From Minisyncoccota bacterium (GTDB taxonomy: Bacteria; Patescibacteriota; Minisyncoccia; Phycocordibacterales; GWA1-40-21), in the NCBI GenBank assembly GCA_041663045.1, contig JBAZRH010000001.1, positions 148,403 through 212,402 on the forward strand: DNA of 64,000 nt, given 5' to 3'. Within the stretch, counting starts at the first letter, position 1, and each line of letters begins with the position of its first letter. Shown here one piece after another: positions 13,172 to 49,425 of this stretch. A program made the position numbers and the translations under genes. The notes under the pieces were generated by a model, which was given only the letters and a program-made list of their open reading frames with translations, did not search any database and was not told the DNA's origin.

Positions 13172-14194
13172 TTATTTATTAATTATTCTTACGATTCCTT
13201 TATCCGCATCGACTTCTATTAAATCACCGTCTTTAAAAACTTGTGTGGCGATTTTGGTACCTATTATACAAGGTTTCTTTAATTCGCGAGCCACTATTGC
13301 CGCATGGCAAGTAATGCCACCCTCATCTGTGACAAAGCCGGCAGCCTTGAGCATGGCCGGAAGAAAATCTGGAGTAGTCATTGGTGATACAATAATTTCA
13401 TCTTTTTGAATATCTTTTACTTGGTCTCTACGTCGAAGGATTCTGACCTTACCCTGCACTATACCCTTAAAAGCGACTTGACCTTTTACATGCTTAATAT
13501 TTTCTGTTATACGTTCAATATTTAATTTACATTGTTTATACTTTTTTGAAAATTCTTCTTGGCTACCGACGAAAAGAATGTCCCCATCAATTAGTGAAGA
13601 GTTATTCATACGTTTAATAAGCTCGTCTTCAGATGGTAAAGATTCAATCTCTTCAGATAGAATAACGTTTGTATATTTAGCTATTTTGGGGAATAGTTCA
13701 CGAATCGTATTACCTATATAGATATCGTTAGACGCAAAGAAAGTGTCATCTTTCCTTATGTCTAGGATCTCATCTGTAATACGTTTTGGCGTTTTCTCAT
13801 TTGTCACGGTGTAGTACCACAAATTAAAATTGAACATTAATTCTTGTAAGAGAATCAGATATTCCCTAAACTCCTTTATGTCTTTTGCCGATTTATTTTG
13901 CCAATATTCTTTTATAATCGATAATTGGGCTCGATATTCATTAAGAGACGTCTTTAGAAGATCAGGATTACCTAGATTCTGCTCAAGTAGTTTATCCTTA
14001 AGCCACTGTGTCGCAAACTGATTATCCCAAACCTCTACTACACCATCAATCATGTGGTGAATAATTATTGGTAAGAATGGATTCTGCCAGCCAAGTTTTT
14101 CTTTGATTCCTCTCGAGAGTTGTTGTGCCCAAATCTGTTGAATAAGGATCGTTGTATCTCTAGTGTAGCTTTTTTCAAATATATATTTATTCAT
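13172..14194 (-). CDS. PEP-utilising-enzyme swivel (phosphohistidine) domain protein, paralog A
   Basis: 340 aa; C-terminal ...VKGQVAFKGIVQGKVRIL...[76 protein letters not shown]; divergent helical N-terminal ~240 aa. Confidence 0.85.
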   Translation of the reverse strand: MNKYIFEKSYTRDTTILIQQIWAQQLSRGIKEKLGWQNPFLPIIIHHMIDGVVEVWDNQFATQWLKDKLLEQNLGNPDLLKTSLNEYRAQLSIIKEYWQNKSAKDIKEFREYLILLQELMFNFNLWYYTVTNEKTPKRITDEILDIRKDDTFFASNDIYIGNTIRELFPKIAKYTNVILSEEIESLPSEDELIKRMNNSSLIDGDILFVGSQEEFSKKYKQCKLNIERITENIKHVKGQVAFKGIVQGKVRILRRRDQVKDIQKDEIIVSPMTTPDFLPAMLKAAGFVTDEGGITCHAAIVARELKKPCIIGTKIATQVFKDGDLIEVDADKGIVRIINK

Positions 14195-14197
14195 ATA

Positions 14198-15532: not shown

Positions 15533-15547
15533 ATTTATTTCGTTATA

Positions 15548-17113
15548 TTAATCTTTTATTATCCTTACGATTCCCTTATCTGCATCCACTTCCACCAAAT
15601 CCCCGTCTTTTAGCACCTTTGTGGCAATCTTTGTGCCTATTATACAAGGAATACCTAGCTCTCTTGAAACAATCGCGGCGTGGCAACTAATACCTCCCTC
15701 ATCCGTGATTATAGCGCCAGCAATTTTCATTGCAGGAACATAGTTTGGCATAGTCATACTCGTCACAAGTATTTCCCCAGCTTCTAATTTACCTATCTCA
15801 TTTGCAGAATGTAATACTTTCACAATACCTTTAACAAGTCCTTTGCATGCAATATTTCCCTTAAATGTATCGACTCTTTCTGTCTTTTTTTCAATTATCT
15901 CTTTTATTTTTTCACCGATTGCTATATCTAATTCGTATATTGTGTCTTTAGTATATATGACAGCATACCCGCCACTTCTTTCAAGGATCTTGTTTAGATT
16001 GATCTTTTCTCCAAGCAAGAAATCTGTGATTTCCCAGAAATTGAATAGGCAGATTTTCTTATGATTATCTAGTCCAGCCCTTTTTCCTATTTCATAAAAT
16101 AGATTTTGAACTTTATAGCACACCTCTTCTAGTTTCTCTACTCTTAGTAAACGAATGTGCGCCAAATCAGATGCCTGATGTGCATAAGTAATAACAACTT
16201 TATTTAATCCAGCCTCTTTTATTATTTGTTTTTTTGCTTTAATAAGTCTTTTCTTTGCTTCTTCAATCTCATTTAGTTTTTTCTGTGGATTTTCTCCGAG
16301 TACCTTTTTTAGGTTATTAATAAAATCAGCAAAGCTCTCATAATTAAATCTAAGTTCGGCGTCTGGAATCCAGGCATATTTTTCATAAACATTTTTGATT
16401 ATCTTTATCTGATTGTCTTTAACACCGCTTAAATTTTCATTTAGTGATTGTACATCTACAAAAGTCGATATTTTTATTGCAAGTTTTATCAAAGATTCCT
16501 CTTTTTCTTGAATAGTTGAAATAGTTTCTGAAGAAGTTAAAAGACGTAAGCTTTCCTGTAGCTCTTCATAATTATTGATTGGATTATATACTTTTGATAG
16601 TTCCTCAGTAATTATTCTTATTAGTCCATCTTCTGCTAAAAGCGGTGGCCATAGGTAGACCAATACATTAAATGAGAAATTAAGATATTTTTCATAATAT
16701 TTAAGTAATTTCTTGTCACACATAACAGAAAAATCTATTTTACTTGTTTTATCTGCCCATGTATCAAATAATTTACATTCTTTATATAACCCTGAAAATA
16801 GTTTATCTAAATACCGATAATCTTCTCTGCACTTCTTTTCAAATAGTACTTTGATTTTATCGGCGTTTTCTTCCTGGGAGTATACGTCGTAGTTTAGAGT
16901 CATTATCTTATCCATTTTATTTTTCAGACCAAAATCTTCCCTATCTGAAACACATCCAACACGGATGAGAGAGTCAAAAAGAGGAGAGTTTAACCTCTTT
17001 AAAACTTTGAACCACTTTTCAGAAGCCAGAGTACCAATTTCTTGTCCAGAGATCGTATTAGTTAAGGTTTTATAATCACCTTCTGATATTTTTATCTTTC
17101 TCGTATTTTTCAT
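15548..17113 (-). CDS. PEP-utilising-enzyme swivel domain protein, paralog C
   Basis: 521 aa; C-terminal [53 protein letters not shown]; 4-nt overlap with next gene. Confidence 0.85.
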   Translation of the reverse strand: MKNTRKIKISEGDYKTLTNTISGQEIGTLASEKWFKVLKRLNSPLFDSLIRVGCVSDREDFGLKNKMDKIMTLNYDVYSQEENADKIKVLFEKKCREDYRYLDKLFSGLYKECKLFDTWADKTSKIDFSVMCDKKLLKYYEKYLNFSFNVLVYLWPPLLAEDGLIRIITEELSKVYNPINNYEELQESLRLLTSSETISTIQEKEESLIKLAIKISTFVDVQSLNENLSGVKDNQIKIIKNVYEKYAWIPDAELRFNYESFADFINNLKKVLGENPQKKLNEIEEAKKRLIKAKKQIIKEAGLNKVVITYAHQASDLAHIRLLRVEKLEEVCYKVQNLFYEIGKRAGLDNHKKICLFNFWEITDFLLGEKINLNKILERSGGYAVIYTKDTIYELDIAIGEKIKEIIEKKTERVDTFKGNIACKGLVKGIVKVLHSANEIGKLEAGEILVTSMTMPNYVPAMKIAGAIITDEGGISCHAAIVSRELGIPCIIGTKIATKVLKDGDLVEVDADKGIVRIIKD

Positions 17114-20100
17114 TTTTTCTTATTTAATAATCTTACCACCCCCTTATCTGCATCCACTTCCACTAAATCTCCATCTTTAAGCACCTGCATAGAGTGTAAA
17201 CAACCGACAATACAAGGGATTTTTAATTCTCTGCTTATTATAGCCGCGTGAGATGTTATACCGCCTTCGTCAGCAATGATGGCAGCCGCTTTTCTCGCTA
17301 TTGCCATCATATTTGGCTGGGTCATACTTGTCACGAGAATTTCACCTTCTTTAAAGTCCTTTATACTTTTTTGTAGCATATCCAAATCTCCAGCTATAAC
17401 CTTCCTGACTTTTCCCGTCGCCTTTCCCAACATAGCAATTTGACCCTTTATTGTATTATCAATATTGATAATTTTCTTAATTTTTTCTTTAAAAAGATTA
17501 TTTGCTTCATCTGCTCCAACAACTCTAAGTTTATTATCACTTATTATAATTGCATAGGATTCTTTTCTGTCTACGATTATTGATTTTATATTTCCACGAT
17601 GTGTTCCATTTAACAATTCAATTGTCTCTGGTGGGGTAACAAAATCTAGCATATCAGATAGAGAGATATTAATTCTCTTTGATACCTCATTTAATAAATG
17701 CCTAGATAAATAATACGATCCTGCCCAATATGATTTTATATTCATCCTCTCGATTGATTGGTATTGTAAAAAGTCGGATAAATATTTTACTTCGTCACTT
17801 TCTGATCCAATTTTTCTGTAAATATTCTCCTGTCCTCTTCTGAGCTTCTCCTTATCTTCTTTTAATTTAGAATATTCTAGTCTATACGTATTTTTTTCAG
17901 ATTTTTTTCTATTCTCAAGAAACTTGAGAGTCCTTTTATCGTCGTATTGGCCGAAGACAAGCCAAGGATACTTTGATAGATGTTTTAGTAAAATCGAGTC
18001 ATCGTGTTTTTTTGATAAAATACTTAGCCAATCTAAATATTCTCTTTGTATATCATCAAGAGAAAGCGGAGTTGATAATATACCAAAAACTCTCGGCCAA
18101 TCATTATTAAAATATTTTCTAATAATCTCTTCTAATCTCTGCTCGGCTTTATAAGTAAATTCTGTCCTAGTGCTTCCAAAATATGCTATCGAATCTTTAG
18201 CGTGATCAATAAAAGAATTATAATCTTTAATTATTTGCCCATTTGTATATCTCGAAAAATCTACCGATTCGATTTTTCTCACCCAATTCCACCATTTCTT
18301 TGCTGCTACCCTATACTTAGATTTGTATTTATTGAAATATTTCTCGTCTAGGTATTTTTCTCCAATTTCTTTGAATTTATCTAGCTGTTTTTTAGGCATA
18401 TAAGTTGTGATCACCGATCCATCAAAATAACAGAATATTTCACCCTCTCCATATATATCCCCGTGAGTTATCAAGGCCTCTGAAGTAGTCCATGATGCTG
18501 GCATTATAGGAGTCGTACTCCACATAAAGACCCATTCATCGTTATTTTTTTCTGATATTCCAACCTCTTTTTTAAGTATCTTTATTACTCCCTTATCCGC
18601 ATCGACTTCCACCAGATCTCCATCTTTGAAAACTTGCGTGGCGATTTTGGTACCGACAATACATGGGATTTTTAATTCCCTGGAAATAATTGCCGCGTGG
18701 CAAGTTAAACCCCCTTCATCTGTAACAATAGCTGCGGCATTTTTTAAATAAGGGACAATTTGAGGGTTGGTCATACCAGAAACTAATATTGTACCGGGAG
18801 GAATATCGGCTCCATTCATAAGACTAAGATGTATTTTGACTGGACCTATCGCTTTTCCATGAAAAGCGATATTTCCTTTTACTTCAGCAACGTTTTGGGG
18901 TTCCAAGATTTTTTTCCAGGACAAATATTCGTTACCAGTTAAAAGATCGTTGCTTACCTTTCTGTATGGTAACAATGCCAAACCATTCATCCTCTCATTA
19001 AGCTCGTCCTTGTTTGGCACTCTTTGTCCATACAAGATCTCTTCTATTTCACAACTTCTAAGCGAGAAAGCTTGATTTAACGTAATGTGATGTTTATCAG
19101 CTAATCCCTGCATAAAATCAGTGAGGATCTCAAATAACGGACCAAGAGAGTTGTGTATTTTGAATTTCAATTCACCGAGTTTTATTAATCTGTTCAAAAT
19201 AGATTTTTGTTGTTTATTGAATTTTAATTTCGTAGCATAAGTTGAATCGTGTAATGCTTTTATTAAATTACTTTCTGTTTTAGCTGCTTTTATTATAATG
19301 TTTTCCAACGCTACCAGAACAGGTTGTTCACAGTATAAATATAGATTGCCTATTTTATCAAATAAATTTTCTATTATTTTCCATCGAGATATTTTATCTT
19401 TATCTGAAACTTTATCTAATTTGGTCTGAAGAGACTCTGGCTTTAACTCTTCGGCCAATTTTTTTAACTCTTTTATTTTTTGATTAGCAAATTTGTCATT
19501 TAAGAGTTTTTCTCCAAGATCAAATGCTTGTCTTTGGCCTTCTTTACTCAGATATCCAGCGATATGATCGTCTTTCTGTAAGACAACATAATCAATTTGG
19601 CCATAATTTTTTGGACGAAAAGCTATATCTGTGAAAATAAAAGGAAAATCTGTTTGACGAAAATGAAGTATATAAGAGTCTCTTTCTTCACTGTTTTTAT
19701 CTTTCAAAATCTTAATCACGCCTTTGTCTGCATCCACCTCGATTTCATCACCATCTTTGATAATTTGAGTGGCAATTTTTGTATCTATAATACATGGCTT
19801 ATGAATTTCTCTCGAGACTATGGCGGCATGACATAATAATCCACCTATATCTGTGATTATGGCAGAAGCCTGTTGCATCAAGATAACAAAATCTGGCGTT
19901 GTCATTGTGGACACTAGAATATCTCCAGCTTTCATTTTATGAAATTCATCTCTATTTATAACAACTCTAGCAATTCCTCGGACTTTTCCAGGATATGCTA
20001 CTACGCCTTTTGTTTCCTTCGCGTCTTTATCGGCATGAGGCAACATCTTGTCTTTTAAGTATTCAATATCTTCTTTATCCTCAATAACAATAGAATTTTC

Positions 20101-20766
20101 TTCCTTGTTGGCAAATAGAAACCAGTTTAAATCTCTCCTCCTTATTCCTCGTTTTTTTAGTTCATCTTTTTCAATTTCTCCTTTTAGTCCGGAAAGTATT
20201 TCAGTTGGAGAAAGCATTGTAAATTGACGATATTCTAGATTCAACTCTTTCGCTACAGCATGAAATAGCGGATATGCTTTGGCTGAAAGCATTGAAAAAT
20301 ATTCCGTAGAAACTTGTTTTACATAACCACAAGCGTGCATACACTCTGCACAAAATTCTAGTTTTTTAGAAACTTTCGGTAAAACCTTTTTTGTATGTAC
20401 CCCAGCATCTTTCGAATGAATTATTTGCTCATAAAGTCTGTCAACGGTTAATAATTCACCCACGAAGTTCAAGACTTCAATCCACTCATATTTTTCTGCA
20501 TGTTCCTCAAGCTTCTTTAATAGTGTTTTATTTTTCTTAACTTCTTTAAGGGTTTTGTTTCCGATTAACTTTTTAAGTTTCAAAACTTCTTGTTGTTGGA
20601 TTGTCAGTGGCGAAATAACCTGAGGTATTAAATCAGGTACAAGATCGGCTGGAAACTTTTCTTTGACGACTATATCCGCTAAAACTTCTTCAGATGCTTC
20701 AACAAGAAAAGTCGCACCCAGAAGCCATATAAAATTTAGCTTTCTAATTTCACCGAAAAGTTCCAA
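17110..20766 (-). CDS. triple-module PEP-utilising swivel domain protein (three N-domain + swivel units in one ORF), paralog D
   Basis: 1218 aa from the TTG/first-Met call. Swivel domains at approx nt 19712-19990 ([25 protein letters not shown]), 18585-18850 ([25 protein letters not shown]) and 17113-17400 ([25 protein letters not shown]). The reading frame stays open upstream to nt 21129 with no ATG. Confidence 0.8.
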   Translation of the reverse strand: MELFGEIRKLNFIWLLGATFLVEASEEVLADIVVKEKFPADLVPDLIPQVISPLTIQQQEVLKLKKLIGNKTLKEVKKNKTLLKKLEEHAEKYEWIEVLNFVGELLTVDRLYEQIIHSKDAGVHTKKVLPKVSKKLEFCAECMHACGYVKQVSTEYFSMLSAKAYPLFHAVAKELNLEYRQFTMLSPTEILSGLKGEIEKDELKKRGIRRRDLNWFLFANKEENSIVIEDKEDIEYLKDKMLPHADKDAKETKGVVAYPGKVRGIARVVINRDEFHKMKAGDILVSTMTTPDFVILMQQASAIITDIGGLLCHAAIVSREIHKPCIIDTKIATQIIKDGDEIEVDADKGVIKILKDKNSEERDSYILHFRQTDFPFIFTDIAFRPKNYGQIDYVVLQKDDHIAGYLSKEGQRQAFDLGEKLLNDKFANQKIKELKKLAEELKPESLQTKLDKVSDKDKISRWKIIENLFDKIGNLYLYCEQPVLVALENIIIKAAKTESNLIKALHDSTYATKLKFNKQQKSILNRLIKLGELKFKIHNSLGPLFEILTDFMQGLADKHHITLNQAFSLRSCEIEEILYGQRVPNKDELNERMNGLALLPYRKVSNDLLTGNEYLSWKKILEPQNVAEVKGNIAFHGKAIGPVKIHLSLMNGADIPPGTILVSGMTNPQIVPYLKNAAAIVTDEGGLTCHAAIISRELKIPCIVGTKIATQVFKDGDLVEVDADKGVIKILKKEVGISEKNNDEWVFMWSTTPIMPASWTTSEALITHGDIYGEGEIFCYFDGSVITTYMPKKQLDKFKEIGEKYLDEKYFNKYKSKYRVAAKKWWNWVRKIESVDFSRYTNGQIIKDYNSFIDHAKDSIAYFGSTRTEFTYKAEQRLEEIIRKYFNNDWPRVFGILSTPLSLDDIQREYLDWLSILSKKHDDSILLKHLSKYPWLVFGQYDDKRTLKFLENRKKSEKNTYRLEYSKLKEDKEKLRRGQENIYRKIGSESDEVKYLSDFLQYQSIERMNIKSYWAGSYYLSRHLLNEVSKRINISLSDMLDFVTPPETIELLNGTHRGNIKSIIVDRKESYAIIISDNKLRVVGADEANNLFKEKIKKIINIDNTIKGQIAMLGKATGKVRKVIAGDLDMLQKSIKDFKEGEILVTSMTQPNMMAIARKAAAIIADEGGITSHAAIISRELKIPCIVGCLHSMQVLKDGDLVEVDADKGVVRLLNKKK

Positions 20767-21110
20767 TATATTATTAAAGGAGGCACTCTTATCTTTTAGT
20801 GTACCCGCATATTCTATCGCACCTTTGCATACTGAATCGCAAACTTTTTTTGCATTATCAAAAAAAACTTTATCCCCATTAATAATTTTATTTTTAATCT
20901 GACCTTGTACAAATGTGGCTAAAGATTTTTTAACAATAAAATTACCCCCCGCAAGCGAGCTCGTCCCTGTTTCCGGTATATTTAGCCCTAGTCTATCTGC
21001 TATCTCTTTATTATAACAATCTTCCCAAAAACAAGATGATAAAATATCATTTTTCCATAGACCATAAAATTTCTGATCATCTACATTAAAACTAGCTAAT
21101 TCAGGAGAGT

Positions 21111-22106
21111 TTAGTTTTTTTTTACTTCTTCAGCTTTTGCCTCTGCTCTTATTGAATCTTTATTTGTCAGCGTAGTGATGGGCCTGCTTTGTACTATATA
21201 AAATTTTCCTTTTTCAAAAGCCCATTCTATATCGCAAGGGAAACCATAATGATTCTCGATTTTCATTATTAAATCTGCGAATTCAAAGATTTGTTTTTCA
21301 GTGAGTACTTGAGATGATGCTTTTGGTTCAGAAATATCGATCCACTCATTGCCACCAGTTGAAACTCTATATAAACCTCTTGCTTGTGTTGAAATATTTG
21401 TATCGATAATTCTTCTCGGATCCTTCTCGACAACATATGAATCTGGTGTTATCTGTCCAGACACTATGGCTTCCCCAAGACCAAATCCAGCTTCTATAAT
21501 CATCTGATTTCTGTCTTCGGTAACAGGATGTACAGAGAAAGCTATACCGGAAACTTCAGAATTTACCATTTTTTGTATGACGACAGCGACTGAAATCTTT
21601 GTCTCGTGTAAATCTTTTTCAAATCTATAAAAAATAGCTCTCGGAGTGAAAAGTGATGCCCAGCAATGCTGAACTTTTTCTAAAACATTTTTCTCTTTAG
21701 TATTTAAATATGAATCAAGTTGTCCTGCCCAAGCGTTTTCTGCGCCGTCTTCTGCGGTGGCGGACGAACGGACGGCTACGAATTCGGTATCTAACTTTTT
21801 AAACTGCGACATTATCTCTTTCGCAATATTTTCTGGCATATCGGCGTTTTTGATAAGACTTTGAATTTTCTCTGAAGCGACTTCAACACTATTTATATCT
21901 TTGTGATTTACTGTATGTAAAACAGTATCTATTTCTTCAGAAAGATTTGCACCTTTTACGAATTCATCGAAAGTAGTTGAGAGGACGACAAAACCCGGCG
22001 GCACTGGTATTCCTGCCTGTGTCATTTCTCCAAGTGAGGCGCCTTTTCCACCGGCAATATCGGCATTGCTTTTATTCAATTCTCTGAAATGCAACGTTAA
22101 TTTCAT
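21111..22106 (-). CDS. PEP synthase / pyruvate-phosphate dikinase N-terminal ATP-grasp (nucleotide-binding) domain protein, stand-alone
   Basis: 331 aa; IAGGKGASLGEMTQAGIPVPPGFVV ... VAVRSSATAEDGAENAWAGQLDSY ... CDIEWAFEKGKFYIVQSRPIT covers Pfam PPDK_N end to end; no swivel or TIM-barrel domain; stop codon sits inside an A9 run. Confidence 0.85.
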   Translation of the reverse strand: MKLTLHFRELNKSNADIAGGKGASLGEMTQAGIPVPPGFVVLSTTFDEFVKGANLSEEIDTVLHTVNHKDINSVEVASEKIQSLIKNADMPENIAKEIMSQFKKLDTEFVAVRSSATAEDGAENAWAGQLDSYLNTKEKNVLEKVQHCWASLFTPRAIFYRFEKDLHETKISVAVVIQKMVNSEVSGIAFSVHPVTEDRNQMIIEAGFGLGEAIVSGQITPDSYVVEKDPRRIIDTNISTQARGLYRVSTGGNEWIDISEPKASSQVLTEKQIFEFADLIMKIENHYGFPCDIEWAFEKGKFYIVQSRPITTLTNKDSIRAEAKAEEVKKN

Positions 22107-22165
22107 ACTGGAAACTATAACAAATTATATATCACTTGGGAAGCTTATTTTTAGTGATAAAAGTG
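22107..22165 (-). promoter_or_regulatory. candidate extended -10 promoter for the PPDK_N gene
   Basis: minus-strand TGATATATAAT ~22 nt upstream of the ATG at 22106; weak -35. Confidence 0.3.
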
Positions 22166-22191
22166 AATAAAACATAGCTCAATTTTGCCTA

Positions 22192-22220
22192 TTGACTTTT
22201 ATATCTAAGTATGCTATCCT
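22192..22220 (+). promoter_or_regulatory. candidate sigma70-type promoter of the GC-rich island gene 1
   Basis: TTGACT-17 nt-TATCCT followed by AAGGAGG Shine-Dalgarno 7 nt before ATG at 22288. Confidence 0.3.
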
Positions 22221-22287
22221 TTCAGGCAGGATACAGGATTGGTACCTGTATGTGTAGAAAACGAAAACAACAGAAGGAGGCGTCAAA

Positions 22288-22923
22288 ATGACGCACAGCA
22301 AACGTAAACTGGTGGCGGTGTTTCAGAGACATGGTGCCACAAACAAAGCGCAAGCGGGTCAGCATGATCTTACCCGCACGCTAAGCGAGGAAGGACGGAA
22401 GCAGGCGGCGTTGATTGGGTCAAAGATCGGTTACAAAATTGACCTTATCATCTCGTCTGCTGCTGGGCGCGCGGTGGAAACAGCATGTATCACGGCACGG
22501 GCGGCGGGTCAGCTCCCGGATGGGGTTCAGCACTTCGCCGAAGATGTGCTTTATCCGCACGAGCATACCTATCCGATTTTGGACGCAGCGTTCAAGAAAA
22601 TCGGGTATGCGCCGCTCGCGAGCTATCTCCTCGACCCAAATGTGGTAAAGGAGACCGCAGCTTACGCGATACGTGCAATGGGCAGGATATGGGAAATCAT
22701 CAACGAGGCCGACTCCGGTCTCGAAGATGAAAAGCAGCCGTTTGTTGTGTTAATAACCTCACACGCCGTCTGCGCCAATATCCTGGCACGGAATATGCAA
22801 CTCGGTACCGACGCGACGCTTGAGGACCTCGTCCTTGTCGGCAGTACGTCAATGGATGCCGGGTCAGCGATCGTGATTGAGCTCGAGGATGACAAGTCCT
22901 CGGCCAAATATATTACGCCGTGA
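22288..22923 (+). CDS. histidine-phosphatase-superfamily protein, SixA-like (phosphohistidine phosphatase-like)
   Basis: 211 aa; RHG motif (VFQRHGAT), LISSAAGRAVETA and LITSHAV second-His motif in the order/spacing of E. coli SixA; strong AAGGAGG RBS; GC-rich codon usage unlike neighbours. Confidence 0.6.
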   Translation: MTHSKRKLVAVFQRHGATNKAQAGQHDLTRTLSEEGRKQAALIGSKIGYKIDLIISSAAGRAVETACITARAAGQLPDGVQHFAEDVLYPHEHTYPILDAAFKKIGYAPLASYLLDPNVVKETAAYAIRAMGRIWEIINEADSGLEDEKQPFVVLITSHAVCANILARNMQLGTDATLEDLVLVGSTSMDAGSAIVIELEDDKSSAKYITP

Positions 22924-23142: not shown

Positions 23143-23616
23143 GTGAGTGCAAATACAAAGCGGATTCTATGTGTGTGCTACGGCAACAGCGACAGGAGTC
23201 CGGCGATGGCGGCGGTACTCAACATGTATCTCAAGAACGCCGGGTACAAGACTTATTGTGAAAGTGCCGGCGTCGGGGAAAATGCTGCGAAAGGCGGTTC
23301 GGCTGCAAAGTTTGCGATTGACGCCTGTAGTCAGATTGGTCTCAATATCTCGGGTCACGACAAGCGTCGGACGACGACGCTCGATCTTAACAGCTACGAT
23401 CTTGTCGTCTGTGCAGACTGTTTGGTCGCCGAGATGCTCATCAAGCAAGGTTGCGACATCGGCAAGATATACAATGCCGAGATTCCCAATCCATGGCCGG
23501 TGAAGTTCAAAGCACAGTACACCGAGACATTCCAGCGAATCCTCGCCGCAATGTATCTCGTCGTGGACCGATACTTCGTCAACATGAATGAAGTGGACGG
23601 TCCGCAAGGTGGTTAA
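23143..23616 (+). CDS. low-molecular-weight protein phosphatase family protein (LMW-PTP / ArsC / YwlE-like)
   Basis: 157 aa; N-terminal P-loop ILCVCYGNSDRSPAMAA = C-x5-R-(S) signature of LMW-PTP/ArsC family; GC-rich. Confidence 0.6.
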   Translation: MSANTKRILCVCYGNSDRSPAMAAVLNMYLKNAGYKTYCESAGVGENAAKGGSAAKFAIDACSQIGLNISGHDKRRTTTLDLNSYDLVVCADCLVAEMLIKQGCDIGKIYNAEIPNPWPVKFKAQYTETFQRILAAMYLVVDRYFVNMNEVDGPQGG

Positions 23617-25128: not shown

Positions 25129-26001
25129 CTATCCTTGAGCTATTTGTTCCACAACAGAGAGATCAATTTCTTCATCAATACTAAAATCATTTAGAGGTGT
25201 ATCGCTCTTTTTGCTATATTTCAAGTGTAATGTAGGTTTTTCTGATCCAGCTTTTGTAATAACATCCAATTCAAATCCTTCCGTTACATCAAAACCGGTA
25301 TTTTTTAATGCTTTTATAAGTTTATTTCTCTCCTCGATGCCTTTTGTCATTTCTACAACTTTCATCAAGAAACTTTCTGCAATACCTTGATGGGTAGCAA
25401 AGAATCTTTTCATTTCTGGTTCATATTTATCACTTTTTTCTTCGACGAGCTTATTCCATCTTGGAGCAATATTAAAATATTTTAAGACAATTTCCGCTAC
25501 GCCTTTTGCTTGACGAGAATATGTTAGCTGTCCTTCAAAACCTTGTTCTTTTGCCAGTGTGTCGCTTTGATCTGCCAAAAATTCCATGAATTTTCCTTTA
25601 GTGAAAGCGTCTATCGCTTGTTTTTCATACTCTGTCTTTCCAATAGAAAAGTCGAGACGTGAATCTACATTGAATTTTGAGCCGTAAGCCAAATCTTTAT
25701 CAATCTTAGTTTTTAGTTCTTCCAATGTCTCGTTACCGGTTATTTCGTCTTCTCCTCCAGCCATCACAAAACCTGCTGTTTCCCAGGTGCGTTCTTTTGT
25801 AGAGACGAAAGCCACAGATTGATCTATATCACTTCCCTTTTCAGCCTTGTTTTTAGCTTGCATACGGCCTCCTGGAGTAAGTCGGATTTGTTCATCTGTC
25901 TTTGTTTTATCTTTCTCTTTTTCGCCATGGCGGAAGAAGTTTAGAATTATTTCTGATTGATATTCTCTTATTGCCTCCGGACTTTTGATTTGTGATTCCA
26001 T
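25129..26001 (-). CDS. histidine-phosphatase-superfamily (PGAM/SixA-like) protein, native composition
   Basis: 290 aa; FFRHGEKE (RHG catalytic motif) near N-terminus and ATHQGIAE second His motif near C-terminus. Confidence 0.5.
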   Translation of the reverse strand: MESQIKSPEAIREYQSEIILNFFRHGEKEKDKTKTDEQIRLTPGGRMQAKNKAEKGSDIDQSVAFVSTKERTWETAGFVMAGGEDEITGNETLEELKTKIDKDLAYGSKFNVDSRLDFSIGKTEYEKQAIDAFTKGKFMEFLADQSDTLAKEQGFEGQLTYSRQAKGVAEIVLKYFNIAPRWNKLVEEKSDKYEPEMKRFFATHQGIAESFLMKVVEMTKGIEERNKLIKALKNTGFDVTEGFELDVITKAGSEKPTLHLKYSKKSDTPLNDFSIDEEIDLSVVEQIAQG

Positions 26002-26004
26002 ATT

Positions 26005-26865
26005 TTATTTATTATTTAATTTTTTACTATTAATCCAAGCTGCTAACCACTTAACATGAAAAGAAAAATCTTTTTCATTTCTACTATTGTCTTCGTATGG
26101 CCTTTTGCACACCACTCTCGGCGCTGCCATTATCCTTCCTCCAGAGAGCAGGATCGCTCTAAAGAGTTGATTTCCTACCATACCATTTACTGGAACAATG
26201 ACATTTGCACCGTCTTCTACGGCTAAGTCCAAATCAATAGACCAATTCTTTGCATCGTAACCGAGTTTCTTGAGTTCGGAGACAATCCACTCAGTATCTT
26301 CATATGTTTTATTTAAAATTCCTACAACACCATCTTTAATGTCTTTTTTCCTTTTATATGTCTCATGGCGTACGCCGGTGAAGACAGCTATTTTCGGTTC
26401 AACTCCCCACTTCTTTGTAAATTCTGCTATACCTTTTGCTATTTCAAATCTCTCTTCTTTATTCCAACCCTCTGGATTACTACAAAGGCCACAAAAGAGT
26501 TGATCTCCTTTTGGTGTTTCCATTAGGCCAGGATTAAGATCGAAGTGCTCACCCGTTATCTTTTTATAAGCATCGGCTGTTTTAAAATCATCAATTGTTC
26601 CTCTGATTATTCCCTCAACTTCATCGCTAGCCAGCATAGAGGCGATTTTTTGTTCAGGATTTTCATCAATAACTAATTTAAAGCCCTTTACGTCTTTTAT
26701 TGCGCCTGGGCCTACCAAAGTAATGTCTGCATACTCACTCATCTTGCTTAGGCAATCCAATATCTCTTTATCTGGAGTTGCCAAGCCAAAAGCAATATTT
26801 ACCCTGCCCTTCGCTGCAAGTTCTTCTACTTTTTTTGTGAAAGCCCCAAGTTTCTTCGTCGTCAT
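26005..26865 (-). CDS. PTA/PTB-family (phosphate acyltransferase-like) protein
   Basis: 286 aa; ADITLVGPG, SDEVEGIIRGTIDDFKTAD, LFCGLCSNPEG, EPKIAVFTG, VIVPVNGMVGNQLFRAILLSGGRIMAAP align motif-by-motif with the Pta/Ptb/PlsX fold. Confidence 0.45.
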   Translation of the reverse strand: MTTKKLGAFTKKVEELAAKGRVNIAFGLATPDKEILDCLSKMSEYADITLVGPGAIKDVKGFKLVIDENPEQKIASMLASDEVEGIIRGTIDDFKTADAYKKITGEHFDLNPGLMETPKGDQLFCGLCSNPEGWNKEERFEIAKGIAEFTKKWGVEPKIAVFTGVRHETYKRKKDIKDGVVGILNKTYEDTEWIVSELKKLGYDAKNWSIDLDLAVEDGANVIVPVNGMVGNQLFRAILLSGGRIMAAPRVVCKRPYEDNSRNEKDFSFHVKWLAAWINSKKLNNK

Positions 26866-26866: not shown

Positions 26867-27946
26867 TTATTGCTTTGTTTGTCCTTTTAATAATTGGTCA
26901 ATATCAAGACAGGTTTTTTCTATGAGAGAATGCATAATAGCCATCTTTTGTTCATTATAAGAAAAATCTTTCCAATCACCGCTTTTTGGTCTATCCATAT
27001 AAGCCCTTTCATTGCATTCAATCTGAAGCGCATTTACGCCCATATTTCTACCTGCTCCACCCCAGAATTTGACATTGTGAACACCTTTCATATAATAATT
27101 TCTGATAAATAATTCACCCTTAATATCCTCTGAAATTAATTTCTTTTCATCTTCCGGTAAAGATTCATAGTTTGTTTTCAGGGCTTTTTCAAACGCTTCT
27201 ATAATATCGTCATCGCAACCTTCTCCATCTCTCGTGCCCAAAATAAACATTGGCATCATCTCTGGATCAGGAATACCATAGTGATCATACCAAGTCTTTG
27301 TATCAGCTGTAACAGGAAAAGAATGTCCATCTACAAGAAGAATCCTCTCCTCTTTTCTATTCTGCCTTTTATCTGCCATAGCTCCGACAGCACCCATAAC
27401 AGTATTGTAATAAGGCAGATAATATCTCTCCGCCCAATTCTCTGCTTCTTCTGCGGTCGGTTGCATATCTTCTTTGTACATAGGGCCGAATTTTGCACCC
27501 TTTGTCCAAAGTATTGTGCCCGGAGCTTTCCCCTTCTCATACTTTTTATCCAAATCAAATTCTGGTGCTCTGTTTGGGTCGACGACAAACCTAGATATAC
27601 CAAACTTTACCCAAGGTATTGTCTTGCTTTTAAATATTTCGGGTGTTCCAAGATCTGTAAGCGCAAGAGTTTCTGTGCCTTCTTCTGTCAGCCTATCTTT
27701 TAAGCTTTCTGGAGCATACTCTCCGGCGTGTGGTAATCCAATAATAACATTTGGACAGCCGTCTCTTGCTATCGGGCTAGTATCACTTTCTACCGCTTCA
27801 TTACCAGTTATCTCTTCTTGCCTCATTTCTGGACGAGACGGTAAACCCAAAGCTTCAAGTGTATTGTAAACTTTTTCGAGTTTTTCTCTTCTTTCTGTTC
27901 GAGAGTCCGTATCTGCGAAAGGAAATTTTGGAGGATGTTCGGTCAT
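26867..27946 (-). CDS. N-formylglutamate amidohydrolase (FGase)-family zinc hydrolase-like protein
   Basis: 359 aa; GLPHAGEYAP, LLVDGHSFP, LQIECNERAYMD correspond to the three conserved FGase blocks. Confidence 0.45.
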   Translation of the reverse strand: MTEHPPKFPFADTDSRTERREKLEKVYNTLEALGLPSRPEMRQEEITGNEAVESDTSPIARDGCPNVIIGLPHAGEYAPESLKDRLTEEGTETLALTDLGTPEIFKSKTIPWVKFGISRFVVDPNRAPEFDLDKKYEKGKAPGTILWTKGAKFGPMYKEDMQPTAEEAENWAERYYLPYYNTVMGAVGAMADKRQNRKEERILLVDGHSFPVTADTKTWYDHYGIPDPEMMPMFILGTRDGEGCDDDIIEAFEKALKTNYESLPEDEKKLISEDIKGELFIRNYYMKGVHNVKFWGGAGRNMGVNALQIECNERAYMDRPKSGDWKDFSYNEQKMAIMHSLIEKTCLDIDQLLKGQTKQ

Positions 27947-29697: not shown

Positions 29698-29725
29698 AAA
29701 AATACTAATGCTTATAATAAGCACA

Positions 29726-40013: not shown

Positions 40014-40018
40014 ATTAT

Positions 40019-41491: not shown

Positions 41492-41496
41492 AAAAT

Positions 41497-42552
41497 CTAT
41501 TTAATAATCCTAATCACTCCTTTATCTGCATCCACCTCTACTATATCTCCGTCTTTTAGCACTTTTGTGGCATTTTTGACCTGAGTAAGCGTAATAATAC
41601 CGAATTCTCTTGAGAAAATAGCGGCGTGGCATAGTAAGCCGCCTTCTTCAGTGACAATAGCTTTAACATCTTTGAGAACATTATTCATAGATGTAGTCGT
41701 CATACTGATCACAACTATTTTGTCTTTTAATTGTTTATCCTTAAAATCTGCTTGAGAGACTACAATCACTTCTCCTGTAATTTTACCTTTTGTCACCGGT
41801 ATACCACTAAGCTCTTTTATCTCCTGTTTTTCTATAGATTTCTCTTCAATCTCTCTCCAATATTTATCAGTATTTAAATCAGTGATTTTCTCTTTGCCTT
41901 TATTATTTTCATATACATACTCGGCTTTTCTTCTTTCCTGAAGTCTATTTATTTTATCTGGGTTTATTTTGCCTTCAAGATATGAGACTATCTCGTAAAA
42001 TGTCAAAAATCTTAAATCTCCCCTTTCTATCTTGTCTTCTCCTGTTGCCGCCAGACATAATTTATCTAAATATTCAAAAAACTCTAAAAATATCAACTTC
42101 CTTTTCTCGTGAAATTCACCAAGTTCTTTTAATTGCTTTTCTGTCAAATCCTTGCCCATACTTCCCACCCTATGAGTGAATTCTAAAAAGCTAGAAAATC
42201 TTACCCATTCATCTCTAGCTTCTTCTAGTCTTTTGATTGTCTCTTCCTTACTTATAAAGTCAGTGGCTCTTTTACAAAGTCTCAGCAAATCGTCGGAGAC
42301 TTTAATACCGAGTTCTAGGCCGCTTTCAATATAATTTTTATCTTTAGCTAGTGCATTTGCTATTCGTTGCGTATTATCTTCATTGTCTTTTGGTTGTATA
42401 TAAACATCCACAACACCGTCATGTCTATGCTCTATCGTCGCTGTATAAAATATTTCTTTTATCGTACCCTTTTTTAACAGAGCGTAGACTATCATTGACC
42501 TGTCTCTCAATGAATAATCTCTTGTTATATATTTTATAAAACTATTTTTCAT
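41497..42552 (-). CDS. divergent/degenerate swivel domain protein, paralog P
   Basis: 351 aa; [52 protein letters not shown]. His retained but the PC(I/V)(I/V)G block is replaced. Confidence 0.75.
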   Translation of the reverse strand: MKNSFIKYITRDYSLRDRSMIVYALLKKGTIKEIFYTATIEHRHDGVVDVYIQPKDNEDNTQRIANALAKDKNYIESGLELGIKVSDDLLRLCKRATDFISKEETIKRLEEARDEWVRFSSFLEFTHRVGSMGKDLTEKQLKELGEFHEKRKLIFLEFFEYLDKLCLAATGEDKIERGDLRFLTFYEIVSYLEGKINPDKINRLQERRKAEYVYENNKGKEKITDLNTDKYWREIEEKSIEKQEIKELSGIPVTKGKITGEVIVVSQADFKDKQLKDKIVVISMTTTSMNNVLKDVKAIVTEEGGLLCHAAIFSREFGIITLTQVKNATKVLKDGDIVEVDADKGVIRIIK

Positions 42553-42554
42553 TT

Positions 42555-46433: not shown

Positions 46434-46434
46434 A

Positions 46435-49425
46435 TTATTTTATTATTTTAACAATTCCTTTATCCGCGTCCACCTCTACTATATCACCATCTTTTAAAAC
46501 TTTAGTGGCATTTTTTGTACCTATTATACAGGGTATATGTAACTCCCTTGATACAATGGCCGCATGGCAAGTGATACCTCCCTCATCTGTTATTATAGCA
46601 CCGGCTATTTTCATAGCAGGTACATAATCCGGCGTGGTCATAGAAGCAACCAAAATATCCCCCTTATTAATCTTAACAATATCTTTTGAAGATGAACATA
46701 CTTTTACAATTCCGGTTGTGATTCCAGAAGAAGCAGATCTACCTTTTAATTCTTTAACATTATCGCTTGATACAATAAGGTTGTATTTTTTAGCAAAAGC
46801 GATAGCTTTATCCCCAACAATCCATTCATATTTATGATCGTGAGATATTAGAATAGAATCTTTTGCTCTTTCTGATAACTCACCTTTAAGTCTATTATCC
46901 AAAACACCTGTTATGAGACTATCTTTAATTTCAAGTGGAGTAAGGAAATTAAAATGATCAGGGCTAATATCTAATCTCTTAGAAATCTCTGGTATAACCA
47001 CTAGTTGTAAGTGTGGGTGACTTTTTGTTTGAAATACTTTCTTTAAGTCTTGTAAATAGCCTAATTTGTGTGCAATATCTATAATTTTCTTTAATCTAGG
47101 TTCAAGATTTAATTTTATTAGTAATTCTTTTTGTCTTTGTCTTTTAAGTTTTAATTCGGCTGATCTTCTCTTTAATTCTTTTTCTGGGTCACCTTTTGAT
47201 AAGATATTTTTTATTTTATTTATAAAGTATTTTTTATCCCACAATACGCCCGTATTATATCCAAATGGTATTGATGAATATTCTTTAACATGTTTATCTA
47301 GCAATTTATCTATATTTGCAGGGATCTTTTTCAGAGAAATATTACCAGTCTTTTTAATCTTGTTAGAAATCTTTAGTATTTCTTCTTCCTCTTTACTTAA
47401 ATCATATGCATATGATAAAGATTCTATTAGAACAATCAGGTCATCCTTAGATATCTTCCTTTTTTCAACAGCGTCATCAAGCTCTTTTTCTAATGTAGGC
47501 ATTCCTACCCACCAGACAGGACAATTCTTTAAATGGAAATTTATATATCTCTCACAATATTCCGTATACTTCTCGGCGATGTATTTATTTGTTAGAGAAG
47601 AGAGTTTGTCTTTTGGAAAAGATCTTTCTATAAAGACCATTAGCGTGTCTTTCTGTTTTTCTGACCACTTTACTAGGTCATTTAACCACCCCTTTTCATC
47701 TAAACATTTATTGAGTATGATCTTTCCAATTGTTTCAAATTCACACTGAGAGTCTGTGGCCGTGGCGATATCTTCTCCTATCCAAGTATATATAGCCGAA
47801 TGAGCTCTTGCACCATACTCTTTTCTCATCTCATCTGTCCCGATATATTCTTGTGTAAAATTTGCAGGAAAAATCAGACAGGTCTTTTTAGGTCTTGCTC
47901 TTGAATTCAGTAGTTCACCGGATGGTTCGTATATATTATCTTCAGAAGCACTTACTAATCTTATCATTCCAGTATTTGCATCCACTTCCACCATATCGCC
48001 GTCTTTTAGTGTTTTGGATGCTGTTTGGGTGCCAATTATGCAAGGGATTTTCATTTCCCTTGATATAACAGAAGCATGACTCAATACGCCACCTTCATCC
48101 GTTATTATTGCAATGGCCTTTTGTAATAATGGCACATAGTCTGGTGTTGTTGAATGTGATACAAGAATATCTCCGCTTTGCATTTTTGGAAAATCTGTCT
48201 TTCTGTGTATTATACAGGCTTTTCCTGTAACTTTGCCTGGATAGGCTGTTTGGCCTTTTATTATCTTTGAATCATTTTCAACGTTTATGAGTTTAATCTT
48301 TTCTTTTGCTAATTTGATTATCGAACCGGAATATATTTCGGTACTCTTACCATCCGCATACATAATATAGCCAAGCTTTCTATCTTCTATAGTTTGTGAA
48401 TTCGCTCTAGTTGAAGTGTTTAACAAATTTATAATTTCCTTCGGTAAAAGATAGAAGATGTCTGCATGATTACTCAATCCGAGTCTTTTTGAAAGCTCTG
48501 TAAGAAAATCTTGAAGATATTGTGTATTTCTATAAAATCTTTCTGTTCTCCAGCTTCTAAAAAAGATAGCTTCCTGTAATATATTTATTAGATTTGGGAT
48601 TTTTGAATCTTCTCTTCCAAGGATTTCCTTGTATTTCTTTATTGACTCCGTTACCTTCTTTCTTTCATCTTTTATCTCCTTAAGCTTAGACTCTGGTTTT
48701 ATCTTAATCGCTGCCTCTACTTTTTCTAAGATTTCACTGGAAGAATAATACTGACCATCCATTGAAGCATTTTTTAGCCAACCAAACTCTAATATATGCT
48801 TTTCAATATCATCTTTAATATCTTTACCATCTCTTTTTTTAATTGCTATTTTAAGAATACTAATCTCCTCACTCTGTGAGGAACTCTGTTTCTCTGATGT
48901 GGAAATGACTTGAATAGCTTCGCTAGACTCTTGAGGGAGGACTTTGCGAATATTTGTAAAGATAGTATCTTCCAGATATTTCTCCATAGCCATCGGTAGT
49001 ATCATAAACGCCGAAGATTTCATTTGCTCTGAAGAGTAATCATCAAATAATTCTGCTAATTTTTTATCTTTTAATTCTGTAAAATTAGTTGTATTTATTT
49101 TCTTAATAATTTTCTCAATATTTGAATTAAGTTTGTAAGCTTTTTCAAACATCTCAATTATAAATTCTGGTCGTTTTTTGAATTCATTTAAAGATTTAAC
49201 AAGATTCTTATCCCAAGTGCTTTTCTCAAAAGCTAACTCTTGATCCAAATATATTATAGGGCTCATCTCATATGGAAAATCTAAGTCTTTGTTTGTATGG
49301 TGAGACAAACCTTCCCATAGCATATAAGTAAAAAGAGGAGTTCTGCTTCTCTTATGTATGAAATGCCACTTGAATTTTCCGAGCTTATCCAAGTCAAAAT
49401 TACCCTTATTTGCCGGCTCTATCAT
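46435..49425 (-). CDS. double-module PEP-utilising swivel domain protein (two N-domain + swivel units), paralog T; first gene of the array
   Basis: 996 aa; internal swivel approx nt 47960-48240 (ITDEGGVLSHASVISREMKIPCIIGTQTAS) and C-terminal swivel approx 46440-46720 ([30 protein letters not shown]). Confidence 0.8.
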   Translation of the reverse strand: MIEPANKGNFDLDKLGKFKWHFIHKRSRTPLFTYMLWEGLSHHTNKDLDFPYEMSPIIYLDQELAFEKSTWDKNLVKSLNEFKKRPEFIIEMFEKAYKLNSNIEKIIKKINTTNFTELKDKKLAELFDDYSSEQMKSSAFMILPMAMEKYLEDTIFTNIRKVLPQESSEAIQVISTSEKQSSSQSEEISILKIAIKKRDGKDIKDDIEKHILEFGWLKNASMDGQYYSSSEILEKVEAAIKIKPESKLKEIKDERKKVTESIKKYKEILGREDSKIPNLINILQEAIFFRSWRTERFYRNTQYLQDFLTELSKRLGLSNHADIFYLLPKEIINLLNTSTRANSQTIEDRKLGYIMYADGKSTEIYSGSIIKLAKEKIKLINVENDSKIIKGQTAYPGKVTGKACIIHRKTDFPKMQSGDILVSHSTTPDYVPLLQKAIAIITDEGGVLSHASVISREMKIPCIIGTQTASKTLKDGDMVEVDANTGMIRLVSASEDNIYEPSGELLNSRARPKKTCLIFPANFTQEYIGTDEMRKEYGARAHSAIYTWIGEDIATATDSQCEFETIGKIILNKCLDEKGWLNDLVKWSEKQKDTLMVFIERSFPKDKLSSLTNKYIAEKYTEYCERYINFHLKNCPVWWVGMPTLEKELDDAVEKRKISKDDLIVLIESLSYAYDLSKEEEEILKISNKIKKTGNISLKKIPANIDKLLDKHVKEYSSIPFGYNTGVLWDKKYFINKIKNILSKGDPEKELKRRSAELKLKRQRQKELLIKLNLEPRLKKIIDIAHKLGYLQDLKKVFQTKSHPHLQLVVIPEISKRLDISPDHFNFLTPLEIKDSLITGVLDNRLKGELSERAKDSILISHDHKYEWIVGDKAIAFAKKYNLIVSSDNVKELKGRSASSGITTGIVKVCSSSKDIVKINKGDILVASMTTPDYVPAMKIAGAIITDEGGITCHAAIVSRELHIPCIIGTKNATKVLKDGDIVEVDADKGIVKIIK

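Follow-up and report, generated by a model that had tools for sequence, protein, structure and literature searches.

What is the function of a 36-kb run of genes that all end in the same phosphohistidine domain, and could one kinase serve them all? The question is raised by a stretch of 64,000 nucleotides (hereafter the window) from a Minisyncoccota bacterium (assembly GCA_041663045.1, positions 148,403 to 212,402 of the 428,695-bp contig JBAZRH010000001.1). Positions 13172-49425 of the window carry an array of minus-strand open reading frames (ORFs), each with a divergent N-terminal domain and a C-terminal swivel domain of the kind found in phosphoenolpyruvate (PEP) synthase, pyruvate phosphate dikinase (PPDK) and rifampin phosphotransferase (RPH). 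A preliminary description, made from the sequence alone, had proposed a split RPH-type phosphotransferase in which a shared kinase works with about 20 modules. This proposal was supported by a match of a whole module to RPH structures, by the apparent conservation of the position of RPH Arg666, by that of ATP-site residues, and by fusions of the ATP-grasp domain to between one and eight modules. We consider it rather probable, though by no means settled, that the locus is a one-to-many split dikinase of the RPH family.

Read with translation table 11, the array contains 19 ORFs with a C-terminal PF00391 domain (PEP-utilizers, mobile or swivel domain), and a twentieth lies apart from it on the plus strand at 57088-58527; all of these had been recognized in the preliminary description. 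Its count of 19 paralogs and about 20 modules holds for the ORFs but not for the modules. ORF 17110-20766 (1218 aa) is an in-frame fusion of three complete modules, each consisting of an N-domain and a swivel, and ORF 46435-49425 (996 aa) is a fusion of two, so that there are 22 modules in the array and 23 in the window. The genes are tightly packed, with -8 to +15 nt between most neighbours in the array. They had also been described as consecutive, but seven other genes, two of them on the plus strand, interrupt the array: the PPDK_N gene encoding the ATP-grasp protein, two His_Phos_1 genes, a low-molecular-weight phosphatase gene (LMWPc), an Mmp4/MtxX-like gene, a gene of the FGase family and one gene without a family match. 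The modules amount to about 31 kb of coding sequence, or about 7% of the contig, and 15 swivels fall in the densest 22 kb of the window. The flanks of the array are ordinary chromosome, with rpoA, rpsD, alaS, mnmA, ychF, a MacB-type ABC transporter, tRNAs and uvrC.

The swivel domain was found above the Pfam gathering cut-off for PF00391 (23.1 bits) in all 23 modules, and single-module ORFs scored 69-97 bits (E 2.7e-19 to 6.1e-28). Every module has the motif GG-x-x-[CS]-H-A-[AS]-[IV] with the phospho-acceptor His. In the profile of the 57088 orthogroup this residue falls on the PEP synthase catalytic His and on RPH His825, in agreement with the position assigned to it beforehand. The modules had also been described as lacking both a TIM barrel and an ATP-grasp domain, and Pfam indeed found neither PF02896 nor PF01326 in any of the 20 swivel ORFs; PF02896 was also absent from every other gene of the window that was scanned. 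Mean pairwise identity within the window was 55% for the swivel block, as against 16% for the N-domains. In PEP synthase and PPDK, the Thr located two residues before the His is a site of regulatory phosphorylation. This Thr is present in 16 of the 23 modules and is replaced by Leu, Met or Ser in the other seven, and no gene for a DUF299-type regulatory kinase was seen in the window. Swivel-like segments, 40-55% identical to module residues 373-477 and without an N-domain, were observed on 12 viral contigs from IMG/VR (L086-L097). Carriage of the module family by phages was considered and rejected, as the IMG/VR matches were confined to the swivel (residues 373-459).

The N-terminal regions, 233-466 aa in length, are mostly helical in two AlphaFold2 models and highly divergent, as had been noted. 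The further claim that each gene has a different N-terminal domain was not borne out. When the N-domain profile of module 57088 was compared by hhalign with the other 22, 15 aligned over 285 columns or more with a probability no lower than 98.8%, and one further N-domain aligned over its C-terminal two-thirds. By profile comparison, the N-domains of the window thus appear to be divergent versions of one fold or family. The AlphaFold2 model of module 57088-58527, built with 61 orthologs, had a mean pLDDT of 92.6. In a Foldseek search with this model the only whole-length matches in the PDB were structures of RPH (5fbt, 5fbu and 5hv1, E about 1e-15, query TM 0.60), and all non-RPH structures matched by the swivel only. 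On this model, the substrate domain of the module is predicted to have the fold of the rifampin-binding domain (RIF-BD) of RPH. Identity in the structural alignments to RPH was about 12-15%, and 24% over 206 aa for a short-form module; in the short-form modules the helical domain is missing about 120 residues. The 248-aa gene at 29785-30531 and other unannotated ORFs were considered as degenerate modules and rejected, since hhalign probabilities did not exceed 5% (1.3% for 29785-30531, which is unrelated to the N-domains).

The resemblance to RPH appears to extend to residues involved in catalysis. The 61-ortholog profile aligns to RPH residues 602-866, placing the invariant R278 on Arg666 and the module His on His825 with a spacing of 159 residues in both. 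RPH needs Arg666 and Glu667 when it passes the phosphate from His~P to rifampin, the second phosphotransfer, whereas the first can proceed without them (PMC4844700). Motifs of the type R-[ED]-x-R-K are found at the Arg666 position in about half of the window modules (WREYRK, WREERK, LRDERK, VRDSRK; YREYPK in RPH), and some others have a looser stretch rich in Arg and Lys there; Glu667 is often replaced. In the short orthogroup the Arg is nearly invariant, and when the long and short orthogroups are aligned, their four best-conserved charged positions coincide.

The proposed kinase component is the 331-aa PPDK_N protein, which carries PF01326 only. It aligns to RPH-Lm's ATP-grasp domain (residues 5-317, E 1.6e-62) and keeps the equivalents of RPH Lys22, Arg117 and Glu297, with Ser in place of Thr136; all four are residues mutated or discussed in the RPH study (PMC4844700). 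Another match is 9goj_A (E 2.5e-51), the structure of a stand-alone ATP-grasp protein of 387 aa. From a collection of 5.8 billion proteins, the 119 nearest clusters listed at 90% identity are all stand-alone PF01326 proteins, mostly of about 315 aa and 69-85% identical to the window protein. Few of them have a source name, and those that do are labelled CPR (candidate phyla radiation) or unclassified bacteria. For lineages that evolve this fast, such conservation is striking. When the window was compared with other genomes, the ATP-grasp was 58% identical on average and the best N-domain of the same locus 31%, the ATP-grasp being the higher in 26 of 27 loci. The PPDK_N gene had been taken for the only ATP-grasp gene; this is correct for the PPDK_N type, but a Ddl-type ATP-grasp gene is present downstream of the outlying module.

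For comparison with other genomes, 80 loci around relatives of one module were collected from species-representative genomes and three more from metagenome or genome records (referred to by L numbers). The sample was thus chosen by similarity to a single module and covers at most 10 kb per flank, and its ORFs are stop-to-stop reads. CPR bacteria and DPANN archaea commonly carry similar arrays. Of the loci, 45 were 18 kb or longer; they had a median of five swivels and a maximum of 17, and 17 of them contained at least eight modules; CPR/DPANN arrays hold up to 17 modules per 22 kb. Comparable arrays were found in many independent assemblies, among them the single-record genome CP064975 of 1,217,328 bp. 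Searched by phmmer with only the N-domain, a set of 1.84 billion 50%-identity representatives yielded 743 clusters at E <=1e-3. The named sources were Paceibacterota, other Patescibacteria groups, Woesearchaeota, Nanoarchaeota, Pacearchaeota and Micrarchaeota, and the source names read 'PEP-utilizing enzyme', 'phosphohistidine swiveling domain-containing protein' or 'phosphoenolpyruvate synthase/pyruvate phosphate dikinase'.

PPDK_N occurred at most once in each sampled locus, whatever the number of swivels (up to 17). In the 30 fetched loci with PPDK_N within 10 kb, it was stand-alone in 19 and fused to modules in 11. Single ORFs were found in which one ATP-grasp is followed by one module (L001, L079), by two (L022, L063), by five (L042, 2714 aa) or by eight (L068, 3768 aa), and Pfam gave one PPDK_N with eight PEP-utilizers domains for L068 and one with five for L042. 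Since one PPDK_N is fused to as many as eight modules, this Rosetta-stone evidence argues that a single ATP-grasp works with several acceptor modules. Giant uninterrupted ORFs of 2376 to 4201 aa, with five to eight chained modules, were observed in DPANN-labelled genomes. A full-length ATP-grasp is N-terminal in those of L068 and L042 and C-terminal in that of L024; in the giant ORF of L014 the ATP-grasp match is only partial, covering 72 residues.

The age of the paralogs was assessed from the same loci. A relative at 31-67% identity over its length was found in another CPR/DPANN genome for 18 of the 23 window N-domains, whereas N-domain paralogs in the window are at most 27% identical, usually in partial matches, with one exception of 34% over 143 residues. 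The swivels behaved in the same way: their identity to the swivel of the ortholog averaged 71%, as against a mean of 56% and a maximum of 65% to paralogs in the window, and the ortholog was the closer in 17 of 19 cases. The swivels therefore track the N-domain orthogroups, which rules out their concerted evolution with the local ATP-grasp and shows that the array is not a recent amplification. Altogether, 380 N-domains from the sampled loci formed 129 clusters, and the 23 window modules fall in 22 of these. By record labels, some of which may be binning errors, 25 of the 54 multi-member clusters mix archaeal and bacterial records. Labels such as 'uncultured Gammaproteobacteria' or 'Methanosarcinales' on some third-party annotation (TPA) assemblies were treated as unreliable and excluded from the domain counts. 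The mixed clusters suggest either gene transfer between CPR and DPANN across the domains or mis-binned contigs. On these identities, the window paralogs are ancient orthogroups conserved across phyla and, as far as the record labels can be trusted, across domains. Several window modules had their best match in DPANN-labelled loci (L024, L076, L031).

The closest described systems are the two-component dikinases HpeHI, CreHI and PpsAB, which have been characterised experimentally and consist of an ATP-grasp protein and a protein with a RIF-BD-like domain and a swivel (PMC12167813). HpeI (ATP-grasp) and HpeH (substrate domain and swivel) are separate polypeptides, both of which are needed, and the His is essential (PMC12167813). 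As in the window, an ATP-grasp protein of about 330-340 aa (HpeI/PpsB type) accompanies a separate protein with a C-terminal swivel, and by analogy the same chemistry (ATP to AMP and Pi, His~P, transfer to a hydroxyl) may be expected. However, these systems have one ATP-grasp for one acceptor of about 600 aa, act on phenolics and occur in free-living Proteobacteria and Actinobacteria, whereas in the window one ATP-grasp lies among 23 modules, 340-572 aa in length and in part joined head-to-tail, and the organisms concerned are CPR and DPANN. The PpsA-like NCBIfam PRK08296 models matched only the swivel (for instance residues 369-479 to model positions 497-607), with 92-105 bits against cut-offs of 578-730.

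Among solved structures, RPH (PDB 5FBS/5FBT/5FBU and 5HV1; PMC4844700) alone matches the module over its whole length. It is a single chain of 867 aa (ATP-grasp, RIF-BD, swivel), whereas the ATP-grasp of the window is a separate gene, although single-chain versions with all three domains do exist among the relatives of the window genes (L001, L022, L068). The RPH equivalogs NF041857 and NF000283 were not reached (55.8-65.3 bits against 999, and 35.5-46.7 bits against 1700). The prodigiosin and undecylprodigiosin ligases PigC and RedH belong to the same three-part family, and the RedH model reaches the substrate domain of 15548-17113; they are, however, single-chain enzymes of pigment biosynthesis, and the window score was 86 bits against a cut-off of 1350. 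PEP synthase and PPDK are the closest sequence relatives of the ATP-grasp and of the swivel (8a8e, E 3.6e-77 and 3.3e-37) and share with the modules the motif GG-x-T-[CS]-H-A-A-I including the Thr. In the window, by contrast, the TIM barrel is missing, the swivel is C-terminal and not central, and the proteins are split; PEP synthase has no counterpart of the RPH-like substrate domain, and its equivalog was matched with 115-128 bits against a cut-off of 598. Enzyme I of the PEP-dependent phosphotransferase system (PTS) has a homologous His swivel and also passes its phosphate to another partner, but it takes its phosphate from PEP by way of a TIM barrel and delivers it to HPr, and neither TIM barrel nor HPr is found in the window. 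In architecture the locus thus resembles a two-component dikinase of the RPH family, whereas by sequence scores it falls outside RPH, PRK08296 and PEP synthase, well short of each cut-off and with matches largely limited to the swivel. New with respect to the described systems are the one-to-many stoichiometry, the arrays and polyproteins, the short-form and HTH-fused modules and the restriction to CPR and DPANN. The preliminary description knew of no described locus of this architecture. In this it was too broad, given HpeHI, CreHI and PpsAB and the frequency of arrays in CPR and DPANN, but no paper on the arrays themselves came to light: none was described in the literature covered by our search, which extends to journals outside subscription, nor did a search for terms in the review PMC11665869 retrieve a description. 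What the literature search did bring up was the paper on the two-component dikinases, that on RPH and a resistome survey of CPR genomes.

Given these similarities, the following mechanism is proposed. The stand-alone ATP-grasp protein (21111-22106) would bind ATP and phosphorylate the swivel His of each of the 23 modules, with ATP giving AMP, Pi and His~P (the beta-phosphate going to the His) as in RPH, PEP synthase and HpeHI. The charged swivel would then dock back on its own N-terminal RIF-BD-like helical domain, where the conserved Arg and an acidic or basic neighbour (the equivalents of RPH Arg666, Glu667 and Lys670) may position the phosphoryl group for a hydroxyl acceptor, presumably a small molecule, in the pocket of that module. 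The pockets are only about 16% identical and fall into distinct orthogroups of ancient, conserved standing, so that a different acceptor is expected for each module. For the swivel and the ATP-grasp, we propose that conservation follows from the need of every module to dock on one shared kinase. The neighbouring phosphatases (two His_Phos_1, LMWPc and a HAD-family hydrolase) may dephosphorylate the products or reset the carrier. As to the physiological role, our best guess, a weakly supported one, is that the system phosphorylates, and so captures or activates, a wide and conserved range of small molecules handled by metabolically reduced episymbionts, in preference to conferring resistance to niche antibiotics. 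The conservation of the orthogroups across phyla and the location in the core chromosome favour a standing set of common substrates.

Several observations weigh against a one-to-many dikinase of the RPH family. Four short modules align to the family profile only by the last 60-95 residues of their N-domains, the N-domain of module 13172 aligns to it weakly (probability 44%), and an Arg666-type motif is not obvious in several short-form modules. By sequence, archaeal PEP synthase is a nearer relative of the swivel and of the ATP-grasp than RPH is. One module (28006-29724) carries a helix-turn-helix (HTH) domain, a feature more in keeping with a regulator than with an enzyme; it has no close ortholog in the sampled loci, its best N-domain match being 23% identical, and it could be a transcription factor controlled by phosphorylation or by a ligand. 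The association of arrays with phosphatases loses significance when locus length is controlled (10 of 25 loci against 3 of 20, p = 0.10). Finally, the window covers 64 kb of the contig, and further ATP-grasp genes or a PEP-binding partner may lie elsewhere.

The same enzymology could also serve an arsenal for detoxification or antibiotic inactivation, with each module directed against a different toxic small molecule from hosts or competitors, which had been one possibility in the preliminary description. Such an arsenal would agree with RPH as the closest solved structure, with the rph-like matches that a resistome survey counts in CPR genomes (PMC8651080), and with the many paralogs whose divergent pockets fit many ligands. 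It is weakened by the history of the paralogs, which show neither fast turnover nor a patchy distribution: most N-domains have relatives elsewhere, the swivels track the orthogroups, and nearly half of the multi-member clusters span archaeal and bacterial labels. The array furthermore sits in the core chromosome between ychF and macB-type genes, and the RPH equivalog score is far below its cut-off. Recent tandem duplication, as in an arms race, was rejected because the N-domain orthologs in other genomes are closer than the paralogs in the window, and we regard the arsenal as unlikely. A slightly lower probability still is given to a phospho-His signalling network, in which the N-domains would be ligand sensors, the swivel His~P the signal and the His_Phos_1 proteins SixA-like resetters. 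A relay of this kind, the other possibility raised beforehand, is conceivable and found little support. The XRE-type HTH domain, the Thr two residues before the His in 16 modules and the weak SixA-like match of the 22288 gene would all suit it, as would the recurrence of His_Phos_1 near arrays (17 of 40 loci with at least four swivels against 4 of 43). However, an output domain is present on only one of the 23 modules, no receiver, HPr or EIIA-type partners were found in the window, and the SixA match is below cut-off. The residues that pass the phosphate to the substrate in RPH are, moreover, kept in both orthogroup profiles, with the motif in about half of the window modules. At equal locus length the His_Phos_1 association is the one that reaches only p = 0.10, and His_Phos_1 as an obligatory partner was rejected for this reason although it recurs.

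A split gluconeogenic PEP synthase (pyruvate, water dikinase) with redundant copies is what the source annotations would imply, and the swivel and ATP-grasp do score best against PEP synthase models and structures. We nevertheless consider it very improbable, as PF02896 is found in no module or neighbour, the equivalog score of 115 bits is far from 598, and the N-domain appears to have the RIF-binding fold that PEP synthase lacks. The chance that the array is an assembly artefact, or a recent selfish tandem amplification without function, is close to nil. The swivel-coding DNA does form a repeat of 281 nt in 20 co-oriented copies at about gene-length spacing, but these copies are only 61-73% identical, which excludes a collapsed or duplicated assembly repeat. 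All module ORFs are intact with their catalytic motifs, the modules have their own orthologs in other genomes, to which 18 of the 23 are closer than to each other, and arrays recur in many independent assemblies, CP064975 included. The split dikinase of the RPH family with one kinase for many modules is the reading retained here.

The genes that interrupt or adjoin the array include several of phosphatase families, which suggests a cycle of phosphorylation and dephosphorylation. Close homologs of the His_Phos_1 gene at 25129-26001 adjoin arrays in L062, L043 and L004, and close homologs of the LMWPc gene at 23143-23616 adjoin those in L082 and L058. The segment 22001-24000, with the plus-strand genes 22288-22923 and 23143-23616, has 46% G+C as against about 33-38% in the surrounding array (32-46% in the window) and a reversed GC skew; given its homologs beside the L082 and L058 arrays, the LMWPc gene may still belong to the system despite this shift. 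The Mmp4/MtxX-like gene has one homolog beside an array (L017), and no homolog of the FGase-family gene was found near arrays in the other sampled loci. Two genes downstream of the array, with ychF between, the minus-strand gene 11256-12002 gave a weak PP2C_2-like match of 20.8 bits, below cut-off.

Other features of the window were also recorded. Rfam found five tRNAs only and no riboswitch or other known RNA in the leader regions, and a promoter and terminator scan of the 544-nt upstream gap did no better than shuffles. The modules, the ATP-grasp and the neighbours had no match in PADLOC-DB save for generic HTH models on the HTH module, and an anti-phage defence system was accordingly rejected. 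The five tRNA genes (Val-CAC, Ala-GGC, Ala-CGC, Pro-CGG, Ala-UGC) lie at 53577-56770 between the ABC-transporter genes and the outlying module, and two predicted membrane or unknown ORFs (54981-56598) lie among them. On the minus strand, 8347-10014 holds two adjacent nuclease-type genes, one PD-(D/E)XK/Cas4-like and one with an ATP-cone and an Mrr_cat restriction-endonuclease-like domain. The overlapping minus-strand ORFs 3647-5017 and 5010-6218 (456 and 402 aa) have no Pfam family and are unrelated to the module N-domains (hhalign probability at most 5%).

Table 1. Modules and associated genes of the window, and giant module-chain ORFs of other loci. The hhalign values refer to comparison of the N-domain with the 57088 profile.
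Feature	Coordinates	Strand	Evidence
Module 1 of fusion ORF 46435-49425 (residues 1-496), RIF-BD-like + swivel	47938-49425	-	PF00391 twice in ORF, E 1.8e-51; N-domain matches 57088 profile, E 2.6e-80
Module 2 of fusion ORF 46435-49425 (residues 497-996)	46435-47937	-	hhalign E 7e-46; ortholog in L060, N-domain identity 54%
Short-form module, 362 aa	45345-46433	-	
Long-form module, 493 aa	43871-45352	-	PF00391 E 2.2e-26; hhalign E 5.1e-49 over 359 columns
Long-form module, 439 aa	42555-43874	-	PF00391 E 3.4e-26; hhalign E 5.4e-33; relatives >100 bits in 18 loci
Short-form module, 351 aa, most divergent swivel	41497-42552	-	PF00391 E 2.7e-19; hhalign last 93 columns only, probability 93.6%
Long-form module, 490 aa	40019-41491	-	PF00391 E 3.5e-26; LRDERK at RPH Arg666 position
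Long-form module, 509 aa	38484-40013	-	PF00391 E 5.7e-24; hhalign E 1.2e-22
Long-form module, 478 aa	36980-38416	-	PF00391 E 3e-27; hhalign E 9.8e-37; NCBIfam RPH-type matches reach residue 234
Long-form module, 479 aa	35538-36977	-	PF00391 E 6.4e-26; motif VRDSRK
Short-form module, 363 aa	34443-35534	-	PF00391 E 2.6e-24; hhalign last 95 columns, probability 94.5%
Long-form module, 446 aa	33100-34440	-	PF00391 E 7.3e-26; hhalign E 5.5e-36
Long-form module, 493 aa	31617-33098	-	PF00391 E 1.7e-25; motif WVDRRK
Short-form module, 359 aa	30536-31615	-	PF00391 E 8e-21; hhalign last 60 columns only, probability 83.5%
248-aa gene	29785-30531	-	No Pfam/NCBIfam family at threshold; membership of system by position only
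XRE-type HTH + module, 572 aa	28006-29724	-	HTH_26 E 2e-13 (residues 14-74); PF00391 E 6.6e-24; residues 101-455 match N-domain profile, probability 99.7%; WREYRK
FGase-family (N-formylglutamate amidohydrolase-like)	26867-27946	-	PF05013 E 1.2e-28; membership by position only
Mmp4/MtxX-like	26005-26865	-	TIGR03270 E 1.9e-21, below cut-off
His_Phos_1 (histidine phosphatase superfamily), 290 aa	25129-26001	-	PF00300 E 2.8e-08
Long-form module, 480 aa	23672-25114	-	PF00391 E 6.7e-25; hhalign E 4.8e-33
Low-molecular-weight phosphatase (LMWPc)	23143-23616	+	PF01451 E 6e-12
His_Phos_1, 211 aa, divergent from ATP-grasp gene	22288-22923	+	PF00300 E 2.7e-10; weak SixA-like match E 3.3e-05, below cut-off
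Stand-alone PPDK_N ATP-grasp, 331 aa, proposed shared kinase ('I' component)	21111-22106	-	PF01326 E 3e-99
Module 1 of fusion ORF 17110-20766 (residues 1-359), short form	19690-20766	-	PF00391 three times in ORF, E 1.2e-71; hhalign E 2.1e-46 to reference positions 122-373
Module 2 of fusion ORF 17110-20766 (residues 360-736), short form	18559-19689	-	hhalign last 73 columns, probability 92.2%
Module 3 of fusion ORF 17110-20766 (residues 737-1218), long form	17110-18558	-	hhalign E 3.2e-48
Long-form module, 521 aa	15548-17113	-	PF00391 E 2e-24; hhalign E 5.9e-68; NCBIfam RedH match, residues 268-520
Long-form module, 444 aa	14198-15532	-	PF00391 E 1.6e-24; motif WREERK; hhalign probability 94.8% over 185 columns
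Short-form module, 340 aa, last array gene, 6 nt from ychF	13172-14194	-	PF00391 E 3.2e-26; hhalign probability 44% (weak N-domain homology)
Outlying long-form module, 479 aa, structure-modelled	57088-58527	+	PF00391 E 5.6e-27
HAD-family hydrolase, 18 nt after outlying module	58545-59156	+	PF00702/PF13419 on identical gene in L005 (same genome); link to system by position only
Ddl-type ATP-grasp gene	59158-60180		
Giant module-chain ORFs	L068 122-11425; L014 4973-17575; L076 1-9213; L042 4145-12286; L024 2619-9746		

The array represents a heavy coding investment in a group known for minimal genomes with few recognisable metabolic enzymes, and it recurs in many CPR and DPANN lineages. Metabolic models of these organisms are probably misled by the labels 'PEP synthase/PPDK' or 'PEP-utilizing enzyme' that such genes bear. 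The clade is a great store of phosphotransferases yet to be characterised, the 380 sampled N-domains forming 129 clusters. More tentatively, and we hold this wider proposal to be possible rather than likely, CPR and DPANN may share a lineage-defining battery of dikinases, with a highly conserved ATP-grasp hub charging tens of modules, encoded in arrays or in polyproteins that chain as many as eight, and over 100 classes of specificity in all. Such a battery would irreversibly phosphorylate small molecules derived from the host or the environment, and their capture or activation in the cytoplasm would replace missing kinases and help to explain life on scavenged compounds. If one ATP-grasp does serve dozens of modules, swivel-domain dikinases would be organised on a principle new to them, in which a hub kinase works with specificity modules that can be exchanged, and the modules would offer a testable handle on the small molecules processed by episymbiotic microbes.

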